A stretch of DNA of 64,000 nt from Thermoanaerobaculia bacterium (GCA_036399915.1 DASWME010000127.1:14305-78304); one strand, 5' to 3'; positions 2,242-14,021 are shown, counted from the first letter of the stretch. A program made the numbers and translations. The notes: generated by a model not told the origin, from the letters alone.

Positions 2242-3252
2242 TCAGCGGGGCTCGCGGGGCTCCTGTGGCTCCCCTCTTCCTGACAGGTCGAGCGGCGGCG
2301 CGCCCGGCGTCCGCAGCGAGTAGGCGAGGACCTGGCGGCGGGACACGACCTGGCGCCCATCCGCTTCAAAAACCCGGGAATGGGAGATCACCTGCAGCGG
2401 CTCGATCAGGGCGGTGTCGACGTTCTCGGGCATCACATACATCAGGCGGCTCCAGGCCGTTCGGGCGTTGGGCACATCGCGCGAGAAACGCCCCTCGACC
2501 TCCGTCCTGGAGACGGCTCGTTGGAACCAGCCGCCGCGCCCCAGGGGCTGCTCCTTCGTGCCTTCCCGCCGCGCAGCGACTTCGGCTCCGCCCACGCGGA
2601 TCGACGCGATCCCACCGGTGCGGTGGACCGAGATGCGGACTCCGGCATTGGCAAAATCGATCCCATTGACCTGGCGCAGGAGGCCGAAGCGATATTCGGT
2701 GATCTCCGGCACCGCCTCCAGGTCGCCGCGCGCCATGCCGAACTTCGTGTATCCGACGTCCACCTTGGCAAGATCGAACTGTTCGGCCTTCACGATTCCC
2801 GCGGCAGCGAGGCGCTCGAAACAGTCCTCGAATCGCTCCCGGGCCGCCGCTTCGCCGATCGCCGGGGCGAACGGGAGCTCGTCTGCAAGGTCGGTGTTCG
2901 CAAGGCGGAGGTCATCGTACCGCGGGTCGTACTCGACGTGGAGATACGGCACAGCGGCACTGGGATGCTCACCCCACGCCTGCGCCGCCTTGGCGTGCCG
3001 CTTGGCGGCAGCCATGAACGAGTTGAGGGAGAGATCCTTGCGCTCCAGGAGGACCTGGGCGACCGCGTGGGCGCGAGTTGCGACTTCGGCAGGCAGCCGC
3101 TTCGGCCAGCGCGCCTCGAAGACACCCAACCTCGCTCCCGCCGGCTCGGCAGCCGCCGGTCCGGCGCCGCCGTCCGCGCGAATCCCGGGCGGCCCGCCGG
3201 CGAGCGCGAGGGCGAAAGAGAAAGTCACGACAAGAGCGGTCTTGGTGTTCAT
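2242..3252 (-). CDS. Secreted hypothetical protein (about 337 aa).
   Basis: Internal Met MNTKTALVVTFSFALALAGG gives a signal peptide. The upstream part of the 488-aa track ORF is R-rich artefact. An ATGA overlap with the upstream gene at 3249..3252 suggests an operon. Confidence 0.55.
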   Translation of the reverse strand: MNTKTALVVTFSFALALAGGPPGIRADGGAGPAAAEPAGARLGVFEARWPKRLPAEVATRAHAVAQVLLERKDLSLNSFMAAAKRHAKAAQAWGEHPSAAVPYLHVEYDPRYDDLRLANTDLADELPFAPAIGEAAARERFEDCFERLAAAGIVKAEQFDLAKVDVGYTKFGMARGDLEAVPEITEYRFGLLRQVNGIDFANAGVRISVHRTGGIASIRVGGAEVAARREGTKEQPLGRGGWFQRAVSRTEVEGRFSRDVPNARTAWSRLMYVMPENVDTALIEPLQVISHSRVFEADGRQVVSRRQVLAYSLRTPGAPPLDLSGRGEPQEPREPR

Positions 3253-4079
3253 CGGCAACCTCCGTCTCCATGGTCGTAGAAGGTGTAGACGTAGTAGAAC
3301 AAGGGTTGGCCACCGCCGCAGCCGGGACCGCCCGGCCGCGGTGACGTGTAGATCTGGCGCTTGAGCGCGGCGTCGTTGTGCACCGCTAGGGCCTCGCTCG
3401 CCGTGGCGCCGTAGCTGACCACGATGGGCGAGTTGTCGCCCGTGAACCAGCCGGGCCGGTCTTCCATCGCCCCCAGCCACGAGTTCTTGTTGGATTTCGA
3501 GCCGGTGCCGTTGAAGAAGTTCTTGGCCCCATCGCCATGCACCGATGGCGAGTTGTGGTAGCCGAACTGCTGTCGCAGCCATTGCCAGTTGCCTCCGTCC
3601 ACCAGCGAGCTGGTGTGGAGCGTGCAGCTCGTGATGTATATCCCAAAGCCGCTCGCCGCGCCGCTCATCGCGCCCAGACGCATGTTTTTCGAGAAATCGA
3701 TGGTGCACACGCCGTCACGGGGATATCCCCACTGCAGGAGCCCCTTGTTGCCGTGTCCGGCGTATACCGACAACAGGGCGGCGTCGGCGTAGATGCTGTC
3801 CAGGCCGCCAGCGCCGTACAAAGGAGAGCAGGACTCGATGAAGTCCTGCGGCCAAGCGTTCGCGTCGACCCAGCGCGTGCCCGCCCACCCGGCGCTCCTG
3901 AGCGCATCGCAGAGCTGGCTCGTGACGTCGTTGAGATCGGCGTTCTGGCACCCGTTGCCGGAAAAATCGAGCGATTCGTCGATATAGAACGTGCTGGCAG
4001 CTCCTGCGGGTAGACTCCCCATCAGGCACAGCCAGACGATCCACTGCAGACAGAGTCGAAAACGCTGTGTGTTCTTCAT
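3249..4079 (-). CDS. Secreted protein with a possible caspase-like (clan CD) peptidase fold.
   Basis: Signal peptide MKNTQRFRLCLQWIVWLCLMGSLPAGAAS. A hydrophobic strand is followed by a His-Gly (LLSVYAGHGNKG), and about 44 aa later a hydrophobic strand is followed by a Cys (GFGIYITSCTLH), matching the His/Cys dyad spacing of caspase-fold peptidases. An AGGAGG ribosome-binding site lies upstream. Calling it a peptidase is an inference. Confidence 0.5.
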   Translation of the reverse strand: MKNTQRFRLCLQWIVWLCLMGSLPAGAASTFYIDESLDFSGNGCQNADLNDVTSQLCDALRSAGWAGTRWVDANAWPQDFIESCSPLYGAGGLDSIYADAALLSVYAGHGNKGLLQWGYPRDGVCTIDFSKNMRLGAMSGAASGFGIYITSCTLHTSSLVDGGNWQWLRQQFGYHNSPSVHGDGAKNFFNGTGSKSNKNSWLGAMEDRPGWFTGDNSPIVVSYGATASEALAVHNDAALKRQIYTSPRPGGPGCGGGQPLFYYVYTFYDHGDGGCR

Positions 4080-4112
4080 GTCTTTCCTCCTTCGTTGGAT
4101 GGTCCAAACTCC

Positions 4113-5573
4113 TCAGTACTGCGAAGAGGTCCAGTAGCCGTGAATGTCGTGGTCCGTCGAGCTCCAGAAGTGCTCGTACACCCACAAGGCGCAGCGCGAG
4201 CCCGGCGCCCCGGTGCAGGCGAGCGGGCTCGCGAAGCTGGTGGTGAGGGGATCGATCCTCGTGACCGCAAGCTGGACGTAGCGGTCGTTCTTCGCGTCAT
4301 CGGTCAGACGGGTGGTGGAGCCGAGCGTGCCACTGGCGAAAATTTTGCGGGTGTACACCTCGCCATTCCCACTTCCTCTGACGTAGGCCAACTCGAAGAC
4401 GCCCTCATAAGGCCAGTACTCTGTCGCTGTATGGGAGCCGGCGAGCGAGTACTCGGGAAGGGCGCTCGCGGGAGTCGCGAACTCGCTCAGCGGTACTGAT
4501 ACGGCGGTCACCAACGACCCGACCGGGACGAGAGGTTCGAGTCCCGGGCTGCCGGCGAAGAGCTGCCCGCGGAGCGCCGCCGAGGTCCCATAGGGATTGG
4601 AGATGATGGTACGCCAGAACACCGCCCAGCGATCGCTGGCGTAGCTGTAGGCGAGCACCGGCGGGCCGTTGGACGACGAGGTGACGACAATTTTGTCCTC
4701 GTCCTTGTCGGGCGTGCCCCCCACGACACTGACCTTGCGCACGACGATCTGGCCATTAGGACGGCGGTAGGCCAGGACATAGTAGTCGTCGTTGTAGCCG
4801 TCGCTGTTGCTGGCGCTGTGCCCATAGGCGATCTGCGGCGCGGATAGCGGCTGATCGCCGGCGCCCAGCGATTCGACCAGCTTCTCGCTCCATGCGCCGC
4901 TCGCGTCGTTGACCATCGCCAGCCGGATGGATGAGAAAGGGTCCGTGGTGGTACCAAAGCTGGTGGCGCGATAGGCCAGGAGGTGCGGGTACGGACAGGC
5001 AACGGTCAAGCCGCACGAAAAGCCGACGTCAGGTTTGGTAGCCGCCGAAGGATCCCGCAGGGTGAGGCCTGAGAGGGCGATCTTCCGGGGAGCCATCGTC
5101 GGGTTGCCCGCCCGATCGAGGATGCGAAAGCCGAGCGCGCCGTCGGAGCGCTGCCAGGCGACAAAGTAGCTCCGCCGCGGCGCCGTGATACTCCCGAACT
5201 TGAACGCGACGGTCGGCTTGGTGTGAGCCACCGCGCCGTCGGCGGAGATGTTGAGCGCCCAGTCGTAGACGGAATCACCAGACGGTATTTCGATCCTTTC
5301 TCCGTCCCACTGGATGAGCTTGCCCCAGACCTGCTTGGCAACCGGGAACGTGTCTGCCTCGAAGGCGACGAGGTAGCGGGCGTGCGTCGCGCCCGGCACG
5401 CTCGGGCTGCCGCCGAAGTCGAACGCTGCGGCAGGACGGCCCTGGAAGTATCCGTTGGTCTCGATGGCCGGGGGGTCGCCGGCTTCTCCCGTTACCGGGA
5501 GCACCAGCGCCAGCAGCGCGGCCACGATGGCCGCGCGCCTGAGAGGGTACCCATGCGACTTGCTCTGGTTCAT
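4113..5573 (-). CDS. Secreted hypothetical protein (about 486 aa), possibly a beta-propeller.
   Basis: Internal Met MNQSKSHGYPLRRAAIVAALLALVLPVTGEAG has a strong AAGGAGA ribosome-binding site and a signal peptide. Strand-like motifs recur (YLVAFE, YFVAWQ, YYVLAYRR, WAVFW). The upstream 233 aa of the track ORF is artefact. Confidence 0.6.
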   Translation of the reverse strand: MNQSKSHGYPLRRAAIVAALLALVLPVTGEAGDPPAIETNGYFQGRPAAAFDFGGSPSVPGATHARYLVAFEADTFPVAKQVWGKLIQWDGERIEIPSGDSVYDWALNISADGAVAHTKPTVAFKFGSITAPRRSYFVAWQRSDGALGFRILDRAGNPTMAPRKIALSGLTLRDPSAATKPDVGFSCGLTVACPYPHLLAYRATSFGTTTDPFSSIRLAMVNDASGAWSEKLVESLGAGDQPLSAPQIAYGHSASNSDGYNDDYYVLAYRRPNGQIVVRKVSVVGGTPDKDEDKIVVTSSSNGPPVLAYSYASDRWAVFWRTIISNPYGTSAALRGQLFAGSPGLEPLVPVGSLVTAVSVPLSEFATPASALPEYSLAGSHTATEYWPYEGVFELAYVRGSGNGEVYTRKIFASGTLGSTTRLTDDAKNDRYVQLAVTRIDPLTTSFASPLACTGAPGSRCALWVYEHFWSSTDHDIHGYWTSSQY

Positions 5574-5729
5574 ATGTTTTCTCCTTTCACCGGGTAAGGC
5601 GCAGGCGGAAGGAAAACCGGCTGACGACGAAGTGACGGCGCCTCTGCGCTGAGGAGAAAGGCGTACAATGGCTGAAACGCCTTCGCCCTTGACGCCACTC
5701 ATGGGTGCGGTCTGTCTCGTGGACGTCCG

Positions 5730-6287
5730 ATGCCAACCCCTGTGACCGAGCTCCTCCGCGACTGGCATGGCGGCGATGAAGCCGCCCGCGACCGGCTCAT
5801 CTCGCTCGTCTATGACGAGTTGCGCCGGCTCGCCAGCGGCCAGCTCGCGGGCGAGCGCGGCGGCCATACGCTGCAGCCGACGGCCCTGGTCCACGAGGCC
5901 TATCTGCGGCTGGCCGACCACCAACGGCTGGATTGGCAGGGCCGGACCCACTTCTTTGCCATTGCGGCCATGACCATGCGGCGGATCCTGGTCAGCCACG
6001 CCCGCAAGCACCGAGCAGCCAAGCGCGGCCAGGGCGGGATCGCCGTGACCCTCTGCGAGGACCAGGCGGTCGACGCGGGCCGGAGCGTCGATCTGCTGGC
6101 TCTCGACGAGGCTCTCGCGGCGCTGGAGCGGATCGATCCCCGCCAGTGCCGCATCATCGAGCTGCGCTATTTCGGCGGGCTCACGATCGAGGAGACGGCC
6201 GAGGCGCTGGGGATCTCCCCCGCCACGGTCAAGCTCGACTGGAGCCTGGCCCGCGCGTGGCTGTTCCGGCAACTCTCAAGGAGGTAG
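5730..6287 (+). CDS. ECF-type RNA polymerase sigma factor of the Ser/Thr-kinase-associated subfamily.
   Basis: N-terminus TELLRDWHGGDEAARDRLISLVYDELRRLA and C-terminal region-4 sequence ELRYFGGLTIEETAEALGISPATVKLDW. It lies immediately upstream of a protein kinase gene. Confidence 0.9.
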   Translation: MPTPVTELLRDWHGGDEAARDRLISLVYDELRRLASGQLAGERGGHTLQPTALVHEAYLRLADHQRLDWQGRTHFFAIAAMTMRRILVSHARKHRAAKRGQGGIAVTLCEDQAVDAGRSVDLLALDEALAALERIDPRQCRIIELRYFGGLTIEETAEALGISPATVKLDWSLARAWLFRQLSRR

Positions 6288-6290
6288 CCT

Positions 6291-9083
6291 ATGAACGGCG
6301 ATCGCTGGCAGCGGGTGCGGGAGATCTTCCAGACCGCTCTCGAGCACGATGCCATGGAATGGCCGGCCGTCGTGGCGGAAGCCTGCGGCGGCGACGCCGA
6401 CCTGCGGGTCGAGGTGGAGTCGCTCCTGGCGGCGCACCGCGCGGCGGAGGACTTCCTGGCCGGTCCGCAAGGAGACGACCTGGAGATCCGTTCCCTCGTC
6501 GGGCAGAGGATCGGACCCTACCAGGTCGCGCAAAGGCTGGGCAGCGGCGGCATGGGAGTGGTCTACCTGGCGTTCCGCGCCGACCGGGAGTATCGGCGCC
6601 GGGTGGCCCTCAAGGTGCTCAAGCCCGGCCTCGATTCTGAAGAGGTGATCCGGCGCTTCCGCGCCGAGCGCCAGATCCTGGCGGCCCTGGATCATCCCAA
6701 TATCGCCCGGCTGCTCGACGGCGGCACCACGGAACAGGGCCTCCCCTACTTCGCCATGGAGTACGTGGAGGGCCAGCCGATCGATGTCTACTGCGCCGAG
6801 CGCCACCTTTCTGTGGACGAACGGCTGGAGCTGTTGCGCACCGTCTGCGCGGCGGTGGAGCACGCCCATCGCAATCTGGTGGTCCACCGCGACCTCAAGC
6901 CGAGCAACATCCTGGTGAGCGCGGACGGGACGCCCAAGCTCCTCGACTTCGGCATCGCGAAGCTCGTCAATCCGGAGATCTCGTCCGCGACGCTGGCGAT
7001 AACGGCCCTGGGCCTTCAGCCTATGACACCCGACTATGCCAGCCCGGAGCAGGTCCAGGGGGAGCACGTCACCACGGCCAGCGACGTCTATTCTCTCGGG
7101 GTCCTGCTCTACGAGCTGCTCACCGGCCGCCACCCCTATCGCTCGCGGGCCTCGAGCCTCGCCGAGATGCGGCGGCTCATCAGCGAGGAGGAGCCCGAGC
7201 GGCCGAGCCTCGCCGTGATGCGCCGTGACGAAGACGCCGGGGAAGCCTCCGGCGCGGCTGCGGCCCGCGGCCCGGCGCCAGCCGGCGACCGCGGCCGGCT
7301 GCGCCGCCAGCTCGCCGGCGACCTCGACAACATCGTGCTCAAGGCCCTGCAGAAAGATCCGCGGCGGCGGTACGGCTCGGTGGAGCAGCTCTCCGAGGAT
7401 CTCCGGCGCCATCGGGAACGGTTGCCGGTCACGGCGCGGCGGAGCACTCTCGCCTACCGCGCCGGCAGGTTCATCCACCGCCACCGCGTCGGGGTGGCCG
7501 CCGCGGCGGGCCTGCTCGTGGCGATCCTCGGCTTCGGTATCGCCATGGGAGCGCTCGCCGTCCAGCTCTCCCGCGAGCGGGACCGCGCCGAGCAGGTGAC
7601 CTCCTTTCTCACCTCGATCTTCGAGGTCTCGGATCCCTGGCGCTCCAACGGCGAGACGATCTCCGCCCGCGAGATCCTCGACGCCGGCGCCGCCCGGCTG
7701 CGCACCGAGCTGGCGAACGAGCCGCTCGTCCGCTCGAGCCTGATGGAGACCATCGGGACCATCTACCAGCGCCTGGGGCTCCTGGACCGCGCGCAGCCTC
7801 TGCTCGAAGCCACCCTCGCGACTCGCCGGCAGTTGCTGGGAGAGGAGGCTCCCGAAGTGGCCGACGCGCTGAGTGCCCTCGCCACGGTGCGGGACGAGAA
7901 GGGCGAGACCCAGGCGGCAATCGACCTGGTTTCCAAGGCGCTGGCGATTCGCCGACGCGTTTACGGGCCCCGGCACCAAACGGTAGCGAGTAGCCTGCAC
8001 GAGCTCGGCCTTCTGCTGCGGCGGCAGGGAGATCTGGCGGCAGCGGAGGGCAAGCTGCGCGAAGCGCTGACCTTGCGCCGCGCGCTGTCGCCACCGGCCC
8101 GGCGCGATGTGGCCGACAGCCTGAACGGTCTCGGCATCGTGCTCTGGGAGCGGGGAAGATATCAAGAGGCGGAGCTGGCGACTCGCGAAGCCCTGGCCAT
8201 CCGCCGAGAGGTGCTGGGTCGCAACCGCGTCGAGGTCGCCGGGACCCTCAACCTGCTGGCGGTGATCGCGGTCGCCAAGGGCGATCTGGACCAGGCCGAG
8301 TCCCTGCTGCGCGAGGCCCTTGCCCTGCGCCGCAGGATCTTTGGCAGCGAGCATCCGAGGACCGCGGAAAGCCTCAACAACCTGGGAGCCCTGCTCAAGG
8401 ACCGGGGGAAGCTGGACGAAGCGGAAGGTTTTTTGAGGGAGGCACTCACGATGCGCCGCAAGCTCCTGGGTGAGCAGCATTTGAGTGTGGCGACGACCCT
8501 GGAGAACCTCGGATGGCTCGCGCTCGAACGCCAGGATTATTCGACCGCCGCGCGCCTGCAGCAGCAGAGCCTGGCCATTCGCACCAGAATGCTGGGCCGG
8601 AACCATGGGCTGGTGGCCGACAGCCTCGTGGCCCTTGCCATTGTCCTGGAGCGGCAGGAGAGCTTCGACGAGGCCGAGGAGGCGCTGCGGGAATCGCTCC
8701 GGATCCGGCGGGAGGCGCTCGGAGACCAGCACGTCCTGGTGGCCGTGAGCCTTCAAAGTCTCGCGAGCCTGTTGGCACGTCGAGGCAGGTCCGCGGAAGC
8801 GGAGAGGCTGGCGGTCGAAGCCGTGAACCTCGTTCGCCGCATGCAGCCGGTCATTCCGGCACGCCTCGCTGAGGCCGAGCGCGTCCTCGCCAACTGCCTC
8901 GCCGCCCAGCGCCGGTACGCCGCGGCGGAACCGCTTCTGCTGAAGAGCCTGGAAACGCTGAGGTCCGAGCTCGGCGAGGCGGCTCCCACCAGCCGGGAAG
9001 CACTCGCCGATCTCGTCGCCCTCTACGAATCCTGGGGAAAACCCAAGCAGGCGGCGGAGTGGCGCCGAAAGCTCGTGCGGTAG
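6291..9083 (+). CDS. Ser/Thr protein kinase with a TM segment and C-terminal TPR repeats, partner of the ECF sigma.
   Basis: Kinase motifs RLGSGGMGVVY, VALKVLK, HRDLKPSNILV, DFGIAKL and SPEQ are present. A hydrophobic segment VGVAAAAGLLVAILGFGIAMGAL follows. The C-terminal approximately 450 aa are tetratricopeptide-like repeats (ALAIRRRVYGPRH..., ALTLRRAL...). Confidence 0.9.
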   Translation: MNGDRWQRVREIFQTALEHDAMEWPAVVAEACGGDADLRVEVESLLAAHRAAEDFLAGPQGDDLEIRSLVGQRIGPYQVAQRLGSGGMGVVYLAFRADREYRRRVALKVLKPGLDSEEVIRRFRAERQILAALDHPNIARLLDGGTTEQGLPYFAMEYVEGQPIDVYCAERHLSVDERLELLRTVCAAVEHAHRNLVVHRDLKPSNILVSADGTPKLLDFGIAKLVNPEISSATLAITALGLQPMTPDYASPEQVQGEHVTTASDVYSLGVLLYELLTGRHPYRSRASSLAEMRRLISEEEPERPSLAVMRRDEDAGEASGAAAARGPAPAGDRGRLRRQLAGDLDNIVLKALQKDPRRRYGSVEQLSEDLRRHRERLPVTARRSTLAYRAGRFIHRHRVGVAAAAGLLVAILGFGIAMGALAVQLSRERDRAEQVTSFLTSIFEVSDPWRSNGETISAREILDAGAARLRTELANEPLVRSSLMETIGTIYQRLGLLDRAQPLLEATLATRRQLLGEEAPEVADALSALATVRDEKGETQAAIDLVSKALAIRRRVYGPRHQTVASSLHELGLLLRRQGDLAAAEGKLREALTLRRALSPPARRDVADSLNGLGIVLWERGRYQEAELATREALAIRREVLGRNRVEVAGTLNLLAVIAVAKGDLDQAESLLREALALRRRIFGSEHPRTAESLNNLGALLKDRGKLDEAEGFLREALTMRRKLLGEQHLSVATTLENLGWLALERQDYSTAARLQQQSLAIRTRMLGRNHGLVADSLVALAIVLERQESFDEAEEALRESLRIRREALGDQHVLVAVSLQSLASLLARRGRSAEAERLAVEAVNLVRRMQPVIPARLAEAERVLANCLAAQRRYAAAEPLLLKSLETLRSELGEAAPTSREALADLVALYESWGKPKQAAEWRRKLVR

Positions 9084-10429: not shown

Positions 10430-11671
10430 ATGAAAGTGCTGATCGCCGACAAGTTCGAGAAGAGCGGGGTCGAAGGCTTGAAGGCCGCCGGATGCGAGGT
10501 GGTCCACGAGCCCGATCTCAAGGACGAAGCGCTGACGCGGGCGATCGCCGAGACTCAGGCCGACGTCCTGGTGGTGCGCAGCACCAGGGTCACCGAGGCG
10601 ATGCTCGACGCCGGCCGGCTCTCGCTCGTCGTGCGCGCTGGCGCGGGTTACAACACGATCGACGTGGCGGCGGCGTCGCGCTGCGGCATCTACGTGTCGA
10701 ACTGTCCCGGCAAGAACTCGATCGCGGTCGCCGAGCTGACGATGGCGCTGATCCTCTCGCTCGACCGCCGGGTGCCGGACAACGTGGCCGAGCTGCGCGC
10801 CGGCCGGTGGAACAAGAAGGAGTACTCGAAGGCGCGCGGGCTCCATGGCCAGACCCTCGGCCTGCTCGGCGTCGGCAGCATCGCCCGCGAGGTGATCCGC
10901 CGCGGCATCGCTTTCGGCCTCGACGTGGTCCTCTGGAGCCGGCGCTTCGACGGCGAGGACCGGCCGCTCGCCGAGGAGGAGGCGCAGGCGCTGGGGCTCG
11001 ACCCGGCCGCGCCGATCGCCCTGGCGCCCTCGCCCGCCGAGGTGGCGGCGCGCTGCGACATCCTGAGCGTGCACCTGGCGCTCAAGCCCGAGACCAGGGG
11101 CCTCCTCGACGCCGCGCTGCTCGGCAGGTTGAAACCGGGCGCGATGGTGATCAATACCTCCCGCGGCGAGGTGGTCGACCACGAGGCACTGGCCGCCGCG
11201 ATCAAGGAGAAGGGGCTGCGCGTGGGCCTCGATGTCTACGCCTCCGAGCCGCCGGCCGCGACCGGCGAGATGGAAGACCCCATCCTCGGCCTGCCCAACG
11301 TCTACGGCACGCACCACATCGGCGCCTCGACCGACCAGGCGCAGGAGGCGATCGCCGCCGAGACGGTGCGCATCGTGCGCACCTACATCGAGACGGGCAA
11401 GGTCCCCAACGTCGTCAACCTGTGCAGGAAGACGCCCGCCTCGCACATGCTGGTGGTGCGGCACCGCGACCGCCCGGGCGTGCTGGCGCACGTGTTCGAG
11501 CACCTGCGCGAGGGGAACCTGAACGTCCAAGAGACCGAGAACGTCGTCTTCGAGGGGGCCGAGGCCGCCGTGGCGCGCATCAACCTCGACGACGCGCCCG
11601 CGCCGGCGCTCCTCGACAAGATCCGCGGCGGCAACGCCGACGTGCTCGACCTGCAACTGATCGCGCTCTAG
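10430..11671 (+). CDS. serA: D-3-phosphoglycerate dehydrogenase with a C-terminal ACT domain.
   Basis: Rossmann motif GLLGVGSIAREV, 2-hydroxyacid dehydrogenase signature and a C-terminal ACT-like region. It is followed by serC. Confidence 0.9.
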   Translation: MKVLIADKFEKSGVEGLKAAGCEVVHEPDLKDEALTRAIAETQADVLVVRSTRVTEAMLDAGRLSLVVRAGAGYNTIDVAAASRCGIYVSNCPGKNSIAVAELTMALILSLDRRVPDNVAELRAGRWNKKEYSKARGLHGQTLGLLGVGSIAREVIRRGIAFGLDVVLWSRRFDGEDRPLAEEEAQALGLDPAAPIALAPSPAEVAARCDILSVHLALKPETRGLLDAALLGRLKPGAMVINTSRGEVVDHEALAAAIKEKGLRVGLDVYASEPPAATGEMEDPILGLPNVYGTHHIGASTDQAQEAIAAETVRIVRTYIETGKVPNVVNLCRKTPASHMLVVRHRDRPGVLAHVFEHLREGNLNVQETENVVFEGAEAAVARINLDDAPAPALLDKIRGGNADVLDLQLIAL

Positions 11672-11702
11672 CAGCTCTATCCTTTCGCAGAGGAGATCCG
11701 CG

Positions 11703-12812
11703 ATGACCACCCTGTCGACCATCAACACCAGCGCTCGCATCTACAACTTCTCGGCCGGGCCGGCGATGCTGCCCCTGCCGGTGCTCGAGGAGGCCCAGCG
11801 CGACCTCGTCAGCCTGCCGGGCGTCGGCATGTCGGTGCTCGAGATCAGCCATCGCTCGAAACCTTTCGACGAGATCATCCAGGGCGCCGAGGCCGACTTC
11901 CGCGCCCTGGCGCGCATCCCCGAGGGCTACCACGTGCTGTTCCTGCAGGGCGGCGCGAGCACCCAGTTCTCGATGGTGCCGATGAACCTGTTACCCCCCG
12001 GCGCGACCGCCGATTACATCGTCACCGGCTCGTGGTCGAAGAAGGCGCTCAAGGAAGCCAAGAAGGTCGGCGCGGTCAACGTCGCCGCGACCACCGAGCC
12101 GGAAAACTTCGCCCGCATCCCGCGCCAGGACGAACTCGCGCTGACGCCCGGCGCCGCCTACGTCCACTTCACCTCGAACAACACGATCTTCGGTACCGAG
12201 TGGCCCTCGGAGCCTGAGGTCGGCGACGTGCCGCTCGTCTGCGACGCCTCCTCCGACATCTTCTCGCGGCCGCTCGACGTCGGCCGCTACGGCCTCATCT
12301 ACGCCGGCGCGCAGAAAAACCTCGGGCCGTCCGGCCTCACGGTCGCGGTGATCCGCGACGACCTAGCGAAGCAGGGCGCCGAGTCGCTGCCGACCATGCT
12401 GCGCTATGCGACGCACGTCGAGAACAAATCGCTTTACAACACACCGCCGGTCTTCGCCATCTACATCCTGCGCCTGGTGCTCCGGTGGCTCATCGCCAAC
12501 GGCGGGCTCAAGGCGATGGCGGCGGCGAACCAGCGCAAGGCGGGCAAGCTCTACGCCGAGATCGATCGCACCGGCTTCTACCGCGGCCACGCCGCCCGGG
12601 ACAGCCGGTCGCTGATGAATGTGACCTTCCGGCTGCCCTCCGAGGACCTCGAGAAGCAGTTCGTCCAAGAGGCGACCGCGGCCGGCTTCGACGGCCTCAA
12701 GGGTCACCGCTCGGTCGGCGGTCTCCGCGCCTCGATCTACAACGCCTTCCCCGAAGAGGGAGCCGAGGCCCTGGTGGAGTTCATGCGGGAGTTCGAGAAG
12801 CGGCGCGGCTGA
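11703..12812 (+). CDS. serC: Phosphoserine aminotransferase.
   Basis: N-terminus YNFSAGPAMLP and a class-V aminotransferase lysine region. 369 aa. Confidence 0.9.
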   Translation: MTTLSTINTSARIYNFSAGPAMLPLPVLEEAQRDLVSLPGVGMSVLEISHRSKPFDEIIQGAEADFRALARIPEGYHVLFLQGGASTQFSMVPMNLLPPGATADYIVTGSWSKKALKEAKKVGAVNVAATTEPENFARIPRQDELALTPGAAYVHFTSNNTIFGTEWPSEPEVGDVPLVCDASSDIFSRPLDVGRYGLIYAGAQKNLGPSGLTVAVIRDDLAKQGAESLPTMLRYATHVENKSLYNTPPVFAIYILRLVLRWLIANGGLKAMAAANQRKAGKLYAEIDRTGFYRGHAARDSRSLMNVTFRLPSEDLEKQFVQEATAAGFDGLKGHRSVGGLRASIYNAFPEEGAEALVEFMREFEKRRG

Positions 12813-13944: not shown

Positions 13945-14021
13945 TGGTCGGGACGCCGGGATTTGAACCCGGGACCCCCTGAACCCCATTCAGGTACGCT
14001 ACCAGACTGCGCCACGTCCCG
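13945..14021 (-). tRNA. tRNA-Pro (anticodon GGG).
   Basis: The reverse complement folds as a cloverleaf: CGGGACG/CGTCCCG acceptor stem with a C1:G72 pair (typical of bacterial tRNA-Pro), GCGC/GCGT D-stem, CCTGA/TCAGG anticodon stem with loop ATGGGGT (anticodon GGG), CCGGG/CCCGG T-stem with a TTCAAAT loop, and A73 plus an encoded CCA. Confidence 0.85.

Follow-up and report, generated by a model that had tools for sequence, protein, structure and literature searches.

Does the tight packing of three genes for secreted proteins against a sigma factor and a kinase mark one regulon, or have separate units come to lie side by side? The question is raised by a locus in a 64-kb stretch of DNA from a Thermoanaerobaculia bacterium (GCA_036399915.1 DASWME010000127.1:14305-78304; ~68% G+C; this whole stretch is called the window below). 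Database entries identical to its proteins belong to a metagenome-assembled genome of Thermoanaerobaculia (Acidobacteriota). Three consecutive minus-strand genes, here named A, B, and C, lie head-to-head with a gene for an extracytoplasmic function (ECF) sigma factor, which is followed by the gene for a Ser/Thr protein kinase (Table 1). The first-pass annotation of this DNA had read this arrangement as a kinase-controlled regulon of secreted effectors. Comparison with other genomes shows that the trio consists of two units joined together: gene A, which is lineage-specific and travels with the sigma/kinase pair, and an independent B-C cassette. B probably is a secreted cysteine peptidase of caspase-type fold, and C most likely its separately encoded, prodomain-like partner.

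A Composite Locus

The B-C cassette was found in 29 loci, namely 27 genome loci obtained with B as query, the window, and a further locus, L034. With tblastn, gene C was detected directly 3' of B and in the same orientation in 26 of the 27 loci; with a hidden Markov model of the C family it was detected there in all 29. The spacing between the two called genes lies between a 4-nt overlap and a 30-bp gap. The loci belong to Acidobacteriota, Myxococcota, Proteobacteria, Bacteroidota, and Thermodesulfobacteriota. In none of the 28 loci outside the window is A present, and a pair of ECF sigma factor and kinase occurs within 10 kb in one of them (L026). Likewise, B-C is absent downstream of A in all five other A loci that include such sequence (L004, L032, L033, L035, L036). 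Gene A itself is arranged divergently to the sigma gene in five of the six loci with upstream sequence (these five and the window) and carries the same promoter-like motif in all six. The proposed regulon thus stands for A and falls for B-C: homologues of the cassette mostly occur without the sigma/kinase pair, which refutes the regulon link of B-C as a conserved feature.

A conserved regulon of secreted effectors that comprises all three genes and is dedicated to the ECF sigma factor and its kinase is accordingly a highly improbable reading. It draws on the co-directional, tightly spaced, and probably co-transcribed genes of the window, on locus L026, where an ECF sigma factor and kinase are encoded 3.4 kb downstream of B-C, and on a Ser/Thr kinase gene within 10 kb of B-C in L005, L020, and L027. 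It conflicts not only with the missing gene A but also with the lack of an ECF43-type sigma factor within 10 kb in 27 of the 28 other B-C loci, and the nearby kinases come mostly from Acidobacteriota and Myxococcota, where we assume Ser/Thr kinases to be common. An apparent enrichment of such kinases near B-C, initially seven loci, was set aside when the “kinase” of L019 turned out to be an adenylate cyclase-TPR protein, which lowered the count; except for L007 and L026, the remaining loci of this kind are from the same two phyla. Since unrelated units that were joined recently can look like a tight “operon”, the fact that genes are neighbors in just one genome says little about whether they share a regulon.

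Table 1. Features of the A-B-C locus and of related loci; positions refer to the window unless a locus is named.
Feature	Position	Strand	Basis and remarks
Gene A, orphan protein with weak repeats, predicted to be secreted (486 aa)	4113..5573	-	12 homologues
Gene B, predicted secreted DUF6345-family protein, putative dyad His109/Cys152 (276 aa)	3249..4079	-	AlphaFold2, Foldseek, conservation
Gene C, predicted secreted protein with tandem FTP/PepSY-like α/β modules (336 aa)	2242..3252	-	AlphaFold2, Foldseek, profile search
ECF43-type ECF sigma factor (185 aa)	5730..6287	+	PF07638, E 5.5e-59; TIGR02999, E 1.3e-67
Hanks-type Ser/Thr kinase (930 aa)	6291..9083	+	Pfam: Pkinase, E 6.3e-47; TPR_12, E 7.3e-87
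Bipartite promoter-like motif TCAGCCGGTTTTCCT-N6-TGCGCCTTA	5595..5624	-	Ends ~20-21 nt before the ATG of A
Hairpin, 11-bp perfect, GC-rich	2182-2210 (about)	-	32 nt past the C stop codon; minimum free energy -45.4 kcal/mol, z = -4.0 versus shuffles
Small Cys-rich gene	L009:2684-3049, L010:9480-9851, L011:9431-9886, L019:9401-9835, L031:9533-9892	same as B	Upstream of B

Gene A and the Sigma/Kinase Pair

By its sequence, the sigma factor bears the hallmarks of the ECF43 group. It is of the PF07638/TIGR02999 type (227 bits against TIGR02999, cut-off 126), its gene adjoins that of a Hanks-type kinase with 3 nt between sigma stop and kinase start, and a Pfam scan detected no anti-sigma domain, the neighbors of the sigma gene being the kinase gene and gene A. 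In region 2.2, where canonical ECF sigma factors have DAED, it carries the uncharged residues Q49-P50-T51-A52, followed by LVHE. The ECF43 consensus at this site reads QTTA, Thr being found in 88% of the members (PMC13147305), and EcfP and EcfK are phosphorylated at the Thr in third position (PMC13147305; PMC8999054). From this knowledge of the family, activation of the sigma factor through phosphorylation of Thr51 (codon 5880-5882) would be expected. The kinase consists of a kinase domain (residues ~77-366), a hydrophobic segment read from the sequence (~403-427), and about eight TPR_12 repeats; as the hydrophobic segment separates the domain from the repeats, the latter would lie outside the cytoplasm.

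Gene A has 12 homologues with 51-60% identity, all from Thermoanaerobaculia/Acidobacteria, and a metagenome scan added three more loci only, all of them short. No match was obtained for A in Pfam, NCBIfam, PADLOC, or the sequences of the PDB. All homologues end in ...GYWTSSQY and have four conserved cysteines in common; most of them (645-665 aa; P0123-P0129) possess an additional N-terminal domain of ~190 aa that is missing from the window protein and from P0122. Self-alignment with hhalign indicates weak repeats of ~65-70 aa (E 0.0015-0.008), from which one might guess that A possibly is a β-propeller. The sigma genes facing A in the window, L004, L032, L033, and L035 are orthologous, those of the other loci encoding proteins 65-68% identical to the window sigma factor, and a Ser/Thr kinase gene lies behind the sigma gene wherever the contig reaches far enough. 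Locus L004 contains two ECF43-type sigma/kinase pairs in tandem (L004:674-7912). The second pair, whose sigma factor is 52% identical, faces an unrelated gene for a 291-aa non-secreted protein and is without the A-type motif.

In the 156 bp between the divergent start codons of A and the sigma gene, a bipartite motif precedes A. Alignment of the six upstream regions yields the consensus TCAGCCGGTTTTCCT-N6-T(T)GCGCYTTA, and the motif is conserved in all six loci, whereas the flanking intergenic sequence is divergent. It occurs once in the window, with zero chance matches expected even at three mismatches. In L032, an insertion of 31 nt shifts it farther upstream of the start codon; since the block is conserved and its distance variable, a promoter fits better than a translational element. 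The motif is therefore a candidate promoter of A, and one that the sigma factor might use; transcription of A would then be predicted to begin ~7 nt downstream of TGCGCCTTA. The first-pass annotation had suggested to look in 5574..5729 for an ECF promoter that A and the sigma gene share. The search recovered the conserved motif before A, but no copy of it in the window upstream of B or, in the orientation of the sigma gene, upstream of the latter. With this motif and the conserved divergent layout, A likely is a direct target of the ECF43-type sigma factor. The same intergenic region also contains the inverted repeat GGCGTTTCAGCCATTGTACGCC (5660-5681, minus strand). Of the other A loci, only L036, where no sigma gene lies upstream, has an exact copy. 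The repeat could be a remnant or serve as an operator.

Gene B Encodes a DUF6345 Member of Predicted Caspase-Type Fold

None of the three proteins had been assigned to a family in the first-pass annotation. For B this proved wrong, as it is a member of DUF6345 (PF19872). In the local Pfam copy it scores 26.8 bits, just short of the cut-off of 26.9, and an identical database protein (P0001) carries PF19872.5 as a precomputed assignment. At least 196 homologues with 43-63% identity exist; for the 120 that were listed, on which all conservation and family counts given here are based, 114 match DUF6345 (best E 1.2e-11). B represents a peripheral subfamily in which profile positions 26-86 of 221 alone align. 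We found no functional literature for either DUF6345 or PF19872.

The His-Gly...Cys arrangement with caspase-fold spacing noticed earlier in B (YAGHGN...IYITSC) is indeed present, with His109 (codon 3755-3753) and Cys152 (codon 3626-3624) 43 residues apart. G108-H109 is invariant in the 120 homologues, and G110, N111, T150-S151-C152-T153, C44, and C275 are at least 90% conserved. The AlphaFold2 model of B is of high confidence (predicted local distance difference test, pLDDT, 93.7; predicted template modeling score, pTM, 0.89). In a Foldseek search with this model against the PDB, the best 50 matches are all caspases (caspase-3, -7, -8, -9, -11, and CED-3), with E-values of 6.9e-4 to 8.4e-3, probabilities of 0.82-0.99, and template modeling (TM) scores of 0.31-0.51. 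Peptidases of clan CD are built around a central sheet of strand order 2-1-3-4-5-6 between helices, with the catalytic His and an adjacent Gly at the end of β3 and the Cys at the end of β4 (PMC4357240). The elements of the B model follow in the order β1 (residues 30-35), α1 (54-62), β2 (66-71), β3 (103-107), three short strands (109-128), β4 (145-149), β5, helices, β6, and a helix, which agrees with this description down to the small three-stranded sheet between β3 and α3 (PMC4357240). His109 directly follows β3 and is flanked by glycine on either side, and Cys152 follows β4.

Profile searches of the A, B, and C families against PDB sequences returned chance matches only, such as PP2C with “VYDGHGG”. 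An hhalign comparison of the B family with human caspase-3 was not significant (Prob 0.1) and aligned the His-Gly strand alone, with H109 opposite His121. One of the 120 homologues matches Peptidase_C25 (E 0.028). The model nevertheless supports a caspase-hemoglobinase-type fold for B, and the invariant His-Gly together with the near-invariant Cys argues for catalysis. The peptidase reading of the first-pass annotation has thus withstood structure prediction, as far as prediction goes, with a caspase-type model in which the conserved His109-Gly and Cys152 each sit at a strand end. B probably is a secreted caspase-fold, clan-CD-like cysteine peptidase that would act through His109 and Cys152.

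Gene C Encodes a Probable Propeptide-Like Partner

A word-indexed search detected only three homologues of C; searching 1.84 billion cluster representatives (50% clustering) with a profile yielded 296 representatives. No Pfam model exists for this family, and no literature on it was found. In single-sequence scans of 97 members, 19 match FTP (PF07504) weakly (best E 1e-3) and 29 match DUF4901 (best E 1.1e-5). The AlphaFold2 model of C (pLDDT 91.6) resembles the uncharacterized protein 5coz (E 2e-6) and YycI (2o3o; E 6e-6), followed by the propeptides of an Aspergillus fungalysin (4k90_B; E 3.7e-4) and of the vibriolysin MCP-02 (3nqz_A, E 8e-3; 3nqy_A, E 1.2e-2). The conserved core of the family, EYRF..LR..NGI..ANAGVR..VH..G….R.GG, sits on the three strands that make up the FTP-like sheet. 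Most homologues have a lipobox Cys, in place of which the window protein has Gly (...LALAGG...), so that it may be soluble and not lipid-anchored.

One fusion bears on the relation between the two proteins. An open reading frame on a metagenome contig of 43% G+C (P0259; L041:3-1403) encodes an N-terminal C-like module and, in the same frame, a B-like DUF6345 domain, which are 37% identical to residues 184-323 of C and 32% identical to residues 30-275 of B, respectively. The domain order is that of a zymogen, which argues for a direct relationship between B and C. A small gene for a Cys-rich, lipoprotein-like protein overlaps the 3' end of this reading frame. C is not covalently N-terminal to B in any of the 29 cassette loci, where it is encoded by a separate downstream gene; hence it may work like a propeptide, but is not one. 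Most likely, C is a separately encoded prodomain-like inhibitor and/or folding chaperone of B that may also anchor B to the membrane.

The similarity to YycI, one of the best structural matches, could also indicate that C, like YycH/YycI, regulates or scaffolds a membrane sensor from outside the cytoplasm (the TPR kinase is a possible sensor here), and that B is non-proteolytic or a processing accessory, the two forming a signaling module. In accordance with this, the window cassette adjoins a membrane kinase with a TPR domain predicted to be extracytoplasmic, the cassette of L020 lies between a Ser/Thr kinase gene and that of an FHA-σ54 activator, and a histidine kinase/LytTR pair is encoded upstream of B-C in L002. 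However, no sensor family is conserved beside B-C in the 29 loci, the invariant His-Gly and the Cys of B point to catalysis, and the fusion protein points to a direct relationship between B and C. We consider such a signaling module improbable and retain the prodomain-like function of C.

Distribution and Probable Mobility of the B-C Cassette

The window B protein is no closer to the copies from its own class (44-46% identity within Thermoanaerobaculia) than to those from Burkholderiales (50%) or Polyangia (47%), and horizontal spread of the cassette would fit this pattern. In the closest homologue, L038 (B 63% identical), a fragment encoding the C-terminus of an IS256-family transposase lies immediately upstream of the cassette (L038:3-395). 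A tblastn search with B against the plasmids in PLSDB gave no match.

Strict co-inheritance and tight coupling of B and C, the patchy distribution over phyla, which resembles horizontal transfer, and the transposase fragment beside the closest homologue would likewise be consistent with an effector/immunity (toxin-antitoxin-like) pair, in which B is an exported toxic protease directed against competitors or hosts and C, with the lipobox Cys of most homologues, a protective periplasmic lipoprotein. An Rhs/Tc-toxin gene downstream of B-C in one locus could be viewed in the same light. Yet the fold of C is like that of protease propeptides and not like known immunity families, the fused protein has the order of a zymogen, no conserved secretion-system genes lie near B-C, and neither PADLOC nor plasmid searches returned matches. 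Mechanistically, this reading overlaps with a prodomain-like C, as C would inhibit B in both. We regard an effector/immunity pair as rather unlikely, and prefer C as a prodomain-like partner of the peptidase. A role of the locus as a defense system was dropped, as PADLOC was empty for A, B, and C.

Several cassettes have neighbors of their own. In five alpha- and betaproteobacterial loci, B is immediately preceded by a small, co-directional gene for a secreted protein or lipoprotein (Table 1). Its mature product of ~90 aa has about eight conserved cysteines (…CxVAGGxKGCRC…ERLYCPP…C..G.C) and could represent a third cassette component restricted to certain lineages. In the Thermoanaerobaculia locus L020 (L020:4600-13762), genes for a Ser/Thr kinase with TPR repeats and for an 833-aa protein of unknown function precede B-C, and the gene of an FHA-domain σ54 activator follows, a phospho-signaling context different from that of the window. 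On the contig that encodes P0005 (JGI 3300078620), a gene for a 2146-aa Rhs/TcdB/YD-shell toxin is located 300 bp downstream of the B-C pair.

Transcript Organization and Proposed Mechanism

A check of the open reading frames reproduced the layout described in the first-pass annotation, including the coordinates, ribosome-binding sites, and both the short and the divergent gaps. Purine-rich ribosome-binding sites (AAAGGAG, GAAGGAGGA, and GGAGACGGAGG for A, B, and C, respectively) are located 6-9 nt before the start codons, A and B are 33 bp apart, and B and C share an ATGA overlap. The N-termini of all three proteins have a basic n-region and then a hydrophobic stretch and, called by eye, resemble signal peptides of the Sec type. 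Folding indicates no structure in the spacer between A and B (z = 0.08), the intergenic spacers of the cluster show no σ70-like promoter or terminator-like site, and behind C there is a strong hairpin. On these grounds A, B, and C likely form one transcript, and the hairpin, in which a T-tract is absent, likely marks its 3' end or stabilizes it. With a 33-bp gap that lacks a terminator, B-C probably is read through from the A promoter. The idea that base composition changes from A to B-C was considered and dropped, since the G+C content at third codon positions (GC3) is the same in all three genes (0.82-0.83) and thus gives no mark of an insertion.

We propose the following account of the locus, which as a whole appears to us the best explanation and a fairly probable one. 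The co-encoded membrane Ser/Thr kinase would phosphorylate Thr51, and the ECF43-type sigma factor thus activated would direct divergent transcription of A from the motif upstream of it. Through read-through into B-C, the cassette would come under the control of kinase and sigma factor as well. B would be exported via Sec and function as a caspase-fold cysteine peptidase with the dyad His109/Cys152, while C, translationally coupled to B, would bind it as a separate prodomain, serve as its inhibitor and/or folding chaperone, and could anchor it to the membrane. The position of B-C behind A would then be a lineage-specific recruitment and not a conserved regulon.

Several observations weigh against parts of this account. 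Taken absolutely, the Foldseek scores behind the fold of B are marginal (best E 6.9e-4, TM 0.33-0.51), and no significant sequence or profile link connects B to a family of MEROPS clan CD (C11, C13, C14, C25, C50, C80, and C84, searched in Pfam, NCBIfam, and PDB sequences). The window C protein has no Pfam match at E <= 1, neither 5coz nor YycI, the top structural matches of C, is a protease inhibitor, and P0259 is the sole C-B fusion found, encoded on a single metagenome contig of 1.9 kb with its N-terminus cut off. As for the sigma factor, the motif upstream of A is unlike the common ECF pattern GGAAC/CGT, and in L036 both A and the motif are kept without an adjacent sigma gene, the upstream gene being pseudouridine-synthase-like instead. 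Moreover, all A loci are from related organisms, and shared ancestry could explain some of the conservation.

Neighboring Genes

A minus-strand gene (834-2048), located downstream of the hairpin behind C at a distance of ~190 bp, encodes a BNR/Asp-box, sortilin-Vps10-like β-propeller protein and probably is a transcription unit of its own. On the other side, serA-like and serC-like housekeeping genes (10430-12812) lie just past the kinase gene. Their GC3 is 0.93-0.96, and that of the block formed by A-B-C, the sigma gene, and the kinase gene is lower (0.82-0.89). The sole tRNA gene of the window, for tRNA-Pro (GGG), is found at 13945-14021 on the minus strand.

Comparison with Known Systems

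Neither clan CD folds nor sigma/kinase pairs of the ECF43 type are new; what looks new is the pairing of a caspase-fold enzyme with a separate FTP/PepSY-type module. The analysis provides a candidate function for the widespread DUF6345 and its unnamed partner family (~300 clusters at 50% identity), namely that of a caspase-fold protease with a separate, propeptide-like (lipo)protein as regulator, and it provides a concrete candidate target gene, A, with a promoter motif for an ECF43-type sigma factor in Acidobacteria. In the literature we found targets of kinase-activated sigma factors for two or three organisms, none of them outside Proteobacteria. More speculatively, and with clearly less confidence than in the account given above, DUF6345 and its partner might constitute a new bacterial family of caspase-fold peptidases under zymogen control by a separate, membrane-anchored FTP/PepSY prodomain, spread horizontally and captured here by an ECF43 circuit whose target and motif would be the first defined in Acidobacteria. 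To our knowledge, the FTP/PepSY-type prodomain has so far been seen only as a propeptide of zinc metalloproteases.

The closest models for the sigma/kinase pair are EcfP-PknT of Vibrio parahaemolyticus and EcfK-PknS of Xanthomonas citri, which share with it the adjacent membrane Ser/Thr kinase, the lack of an anti-sigma factor, and an uncharged region 2.2 with Thr in the phospho-acceptor position (QPTA here). In contrast to these systems, the kinase of the window has a long TPR array predicted to be extracytoplasmic. Moreover, the known ECF43 regulons comprise polymyxin resistance genes and a type VI secretion system, whereas here the conserved neighbor encodes an orphan secreted protein.

B resembles the members of clan CD, such as caspases (C14), legumain (C13), gingipains (C25), clostripain (C11), and MARTX-CPD (C80), in its α/β fold with His-Gly after β3 and Cys after β4, and in the hydrophobic strands that precede the dyad (LSVYAGHG and GIYITSC). 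The spacing between His and Cys is 42 residues in caspase-3, one fewer than in B. B differs from the clan CD peptidases in its small size (~245 aa when mature), predicted Sec export, conserved N- and C-terminal cysteines, and a partner encoded by a separate gene; no internal cleavage linker of the caspase type was identified.

With the FTP-PepSY propeptides of M4 and M36 peptidases, for example those of vibriolysin MCP-02 and Aspergillus fungalysin, C has in common the fold, the weak FTP matches, and one fusion in zymogen order. The likeness is at the level of the fold only (TM 0.2-0.4), and unlike these propeptides C normally has a gene of its own, translationally coupled to the gene of its enzyme and located 3' of it, and usually is lipidated; the enzyme is a predicted caspase-fold Cys enzyme instead of a zinc metalloprotease. 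YycH/YycI, EUBREC_2869 (5coz), and the YcdB-YcdC repeats of DUF4901, which provide the best Foldseek matches (E 2e-6 to 6e-5), are like C extracytoplasmic proteins with tandem PepSY-like modules. YycI, however, has a transmembrane anchor and a histidine kinase as partner, whereas C pairs strictly with DUF6345 and has no conserved kinase nearby.

In its genetic organization, the cassette recalls staphopain-staphostatin and SpeB-Spi, in which a cysteine protease gene is followed in the same operon by a small gene for a dedicated partner, Spi being homologous to the propeptide. Staphostatins are cytoplasmic β-barrels that act against mis-activated protease, whereas B and C are both predicted to be exported and the folds are unrelated.

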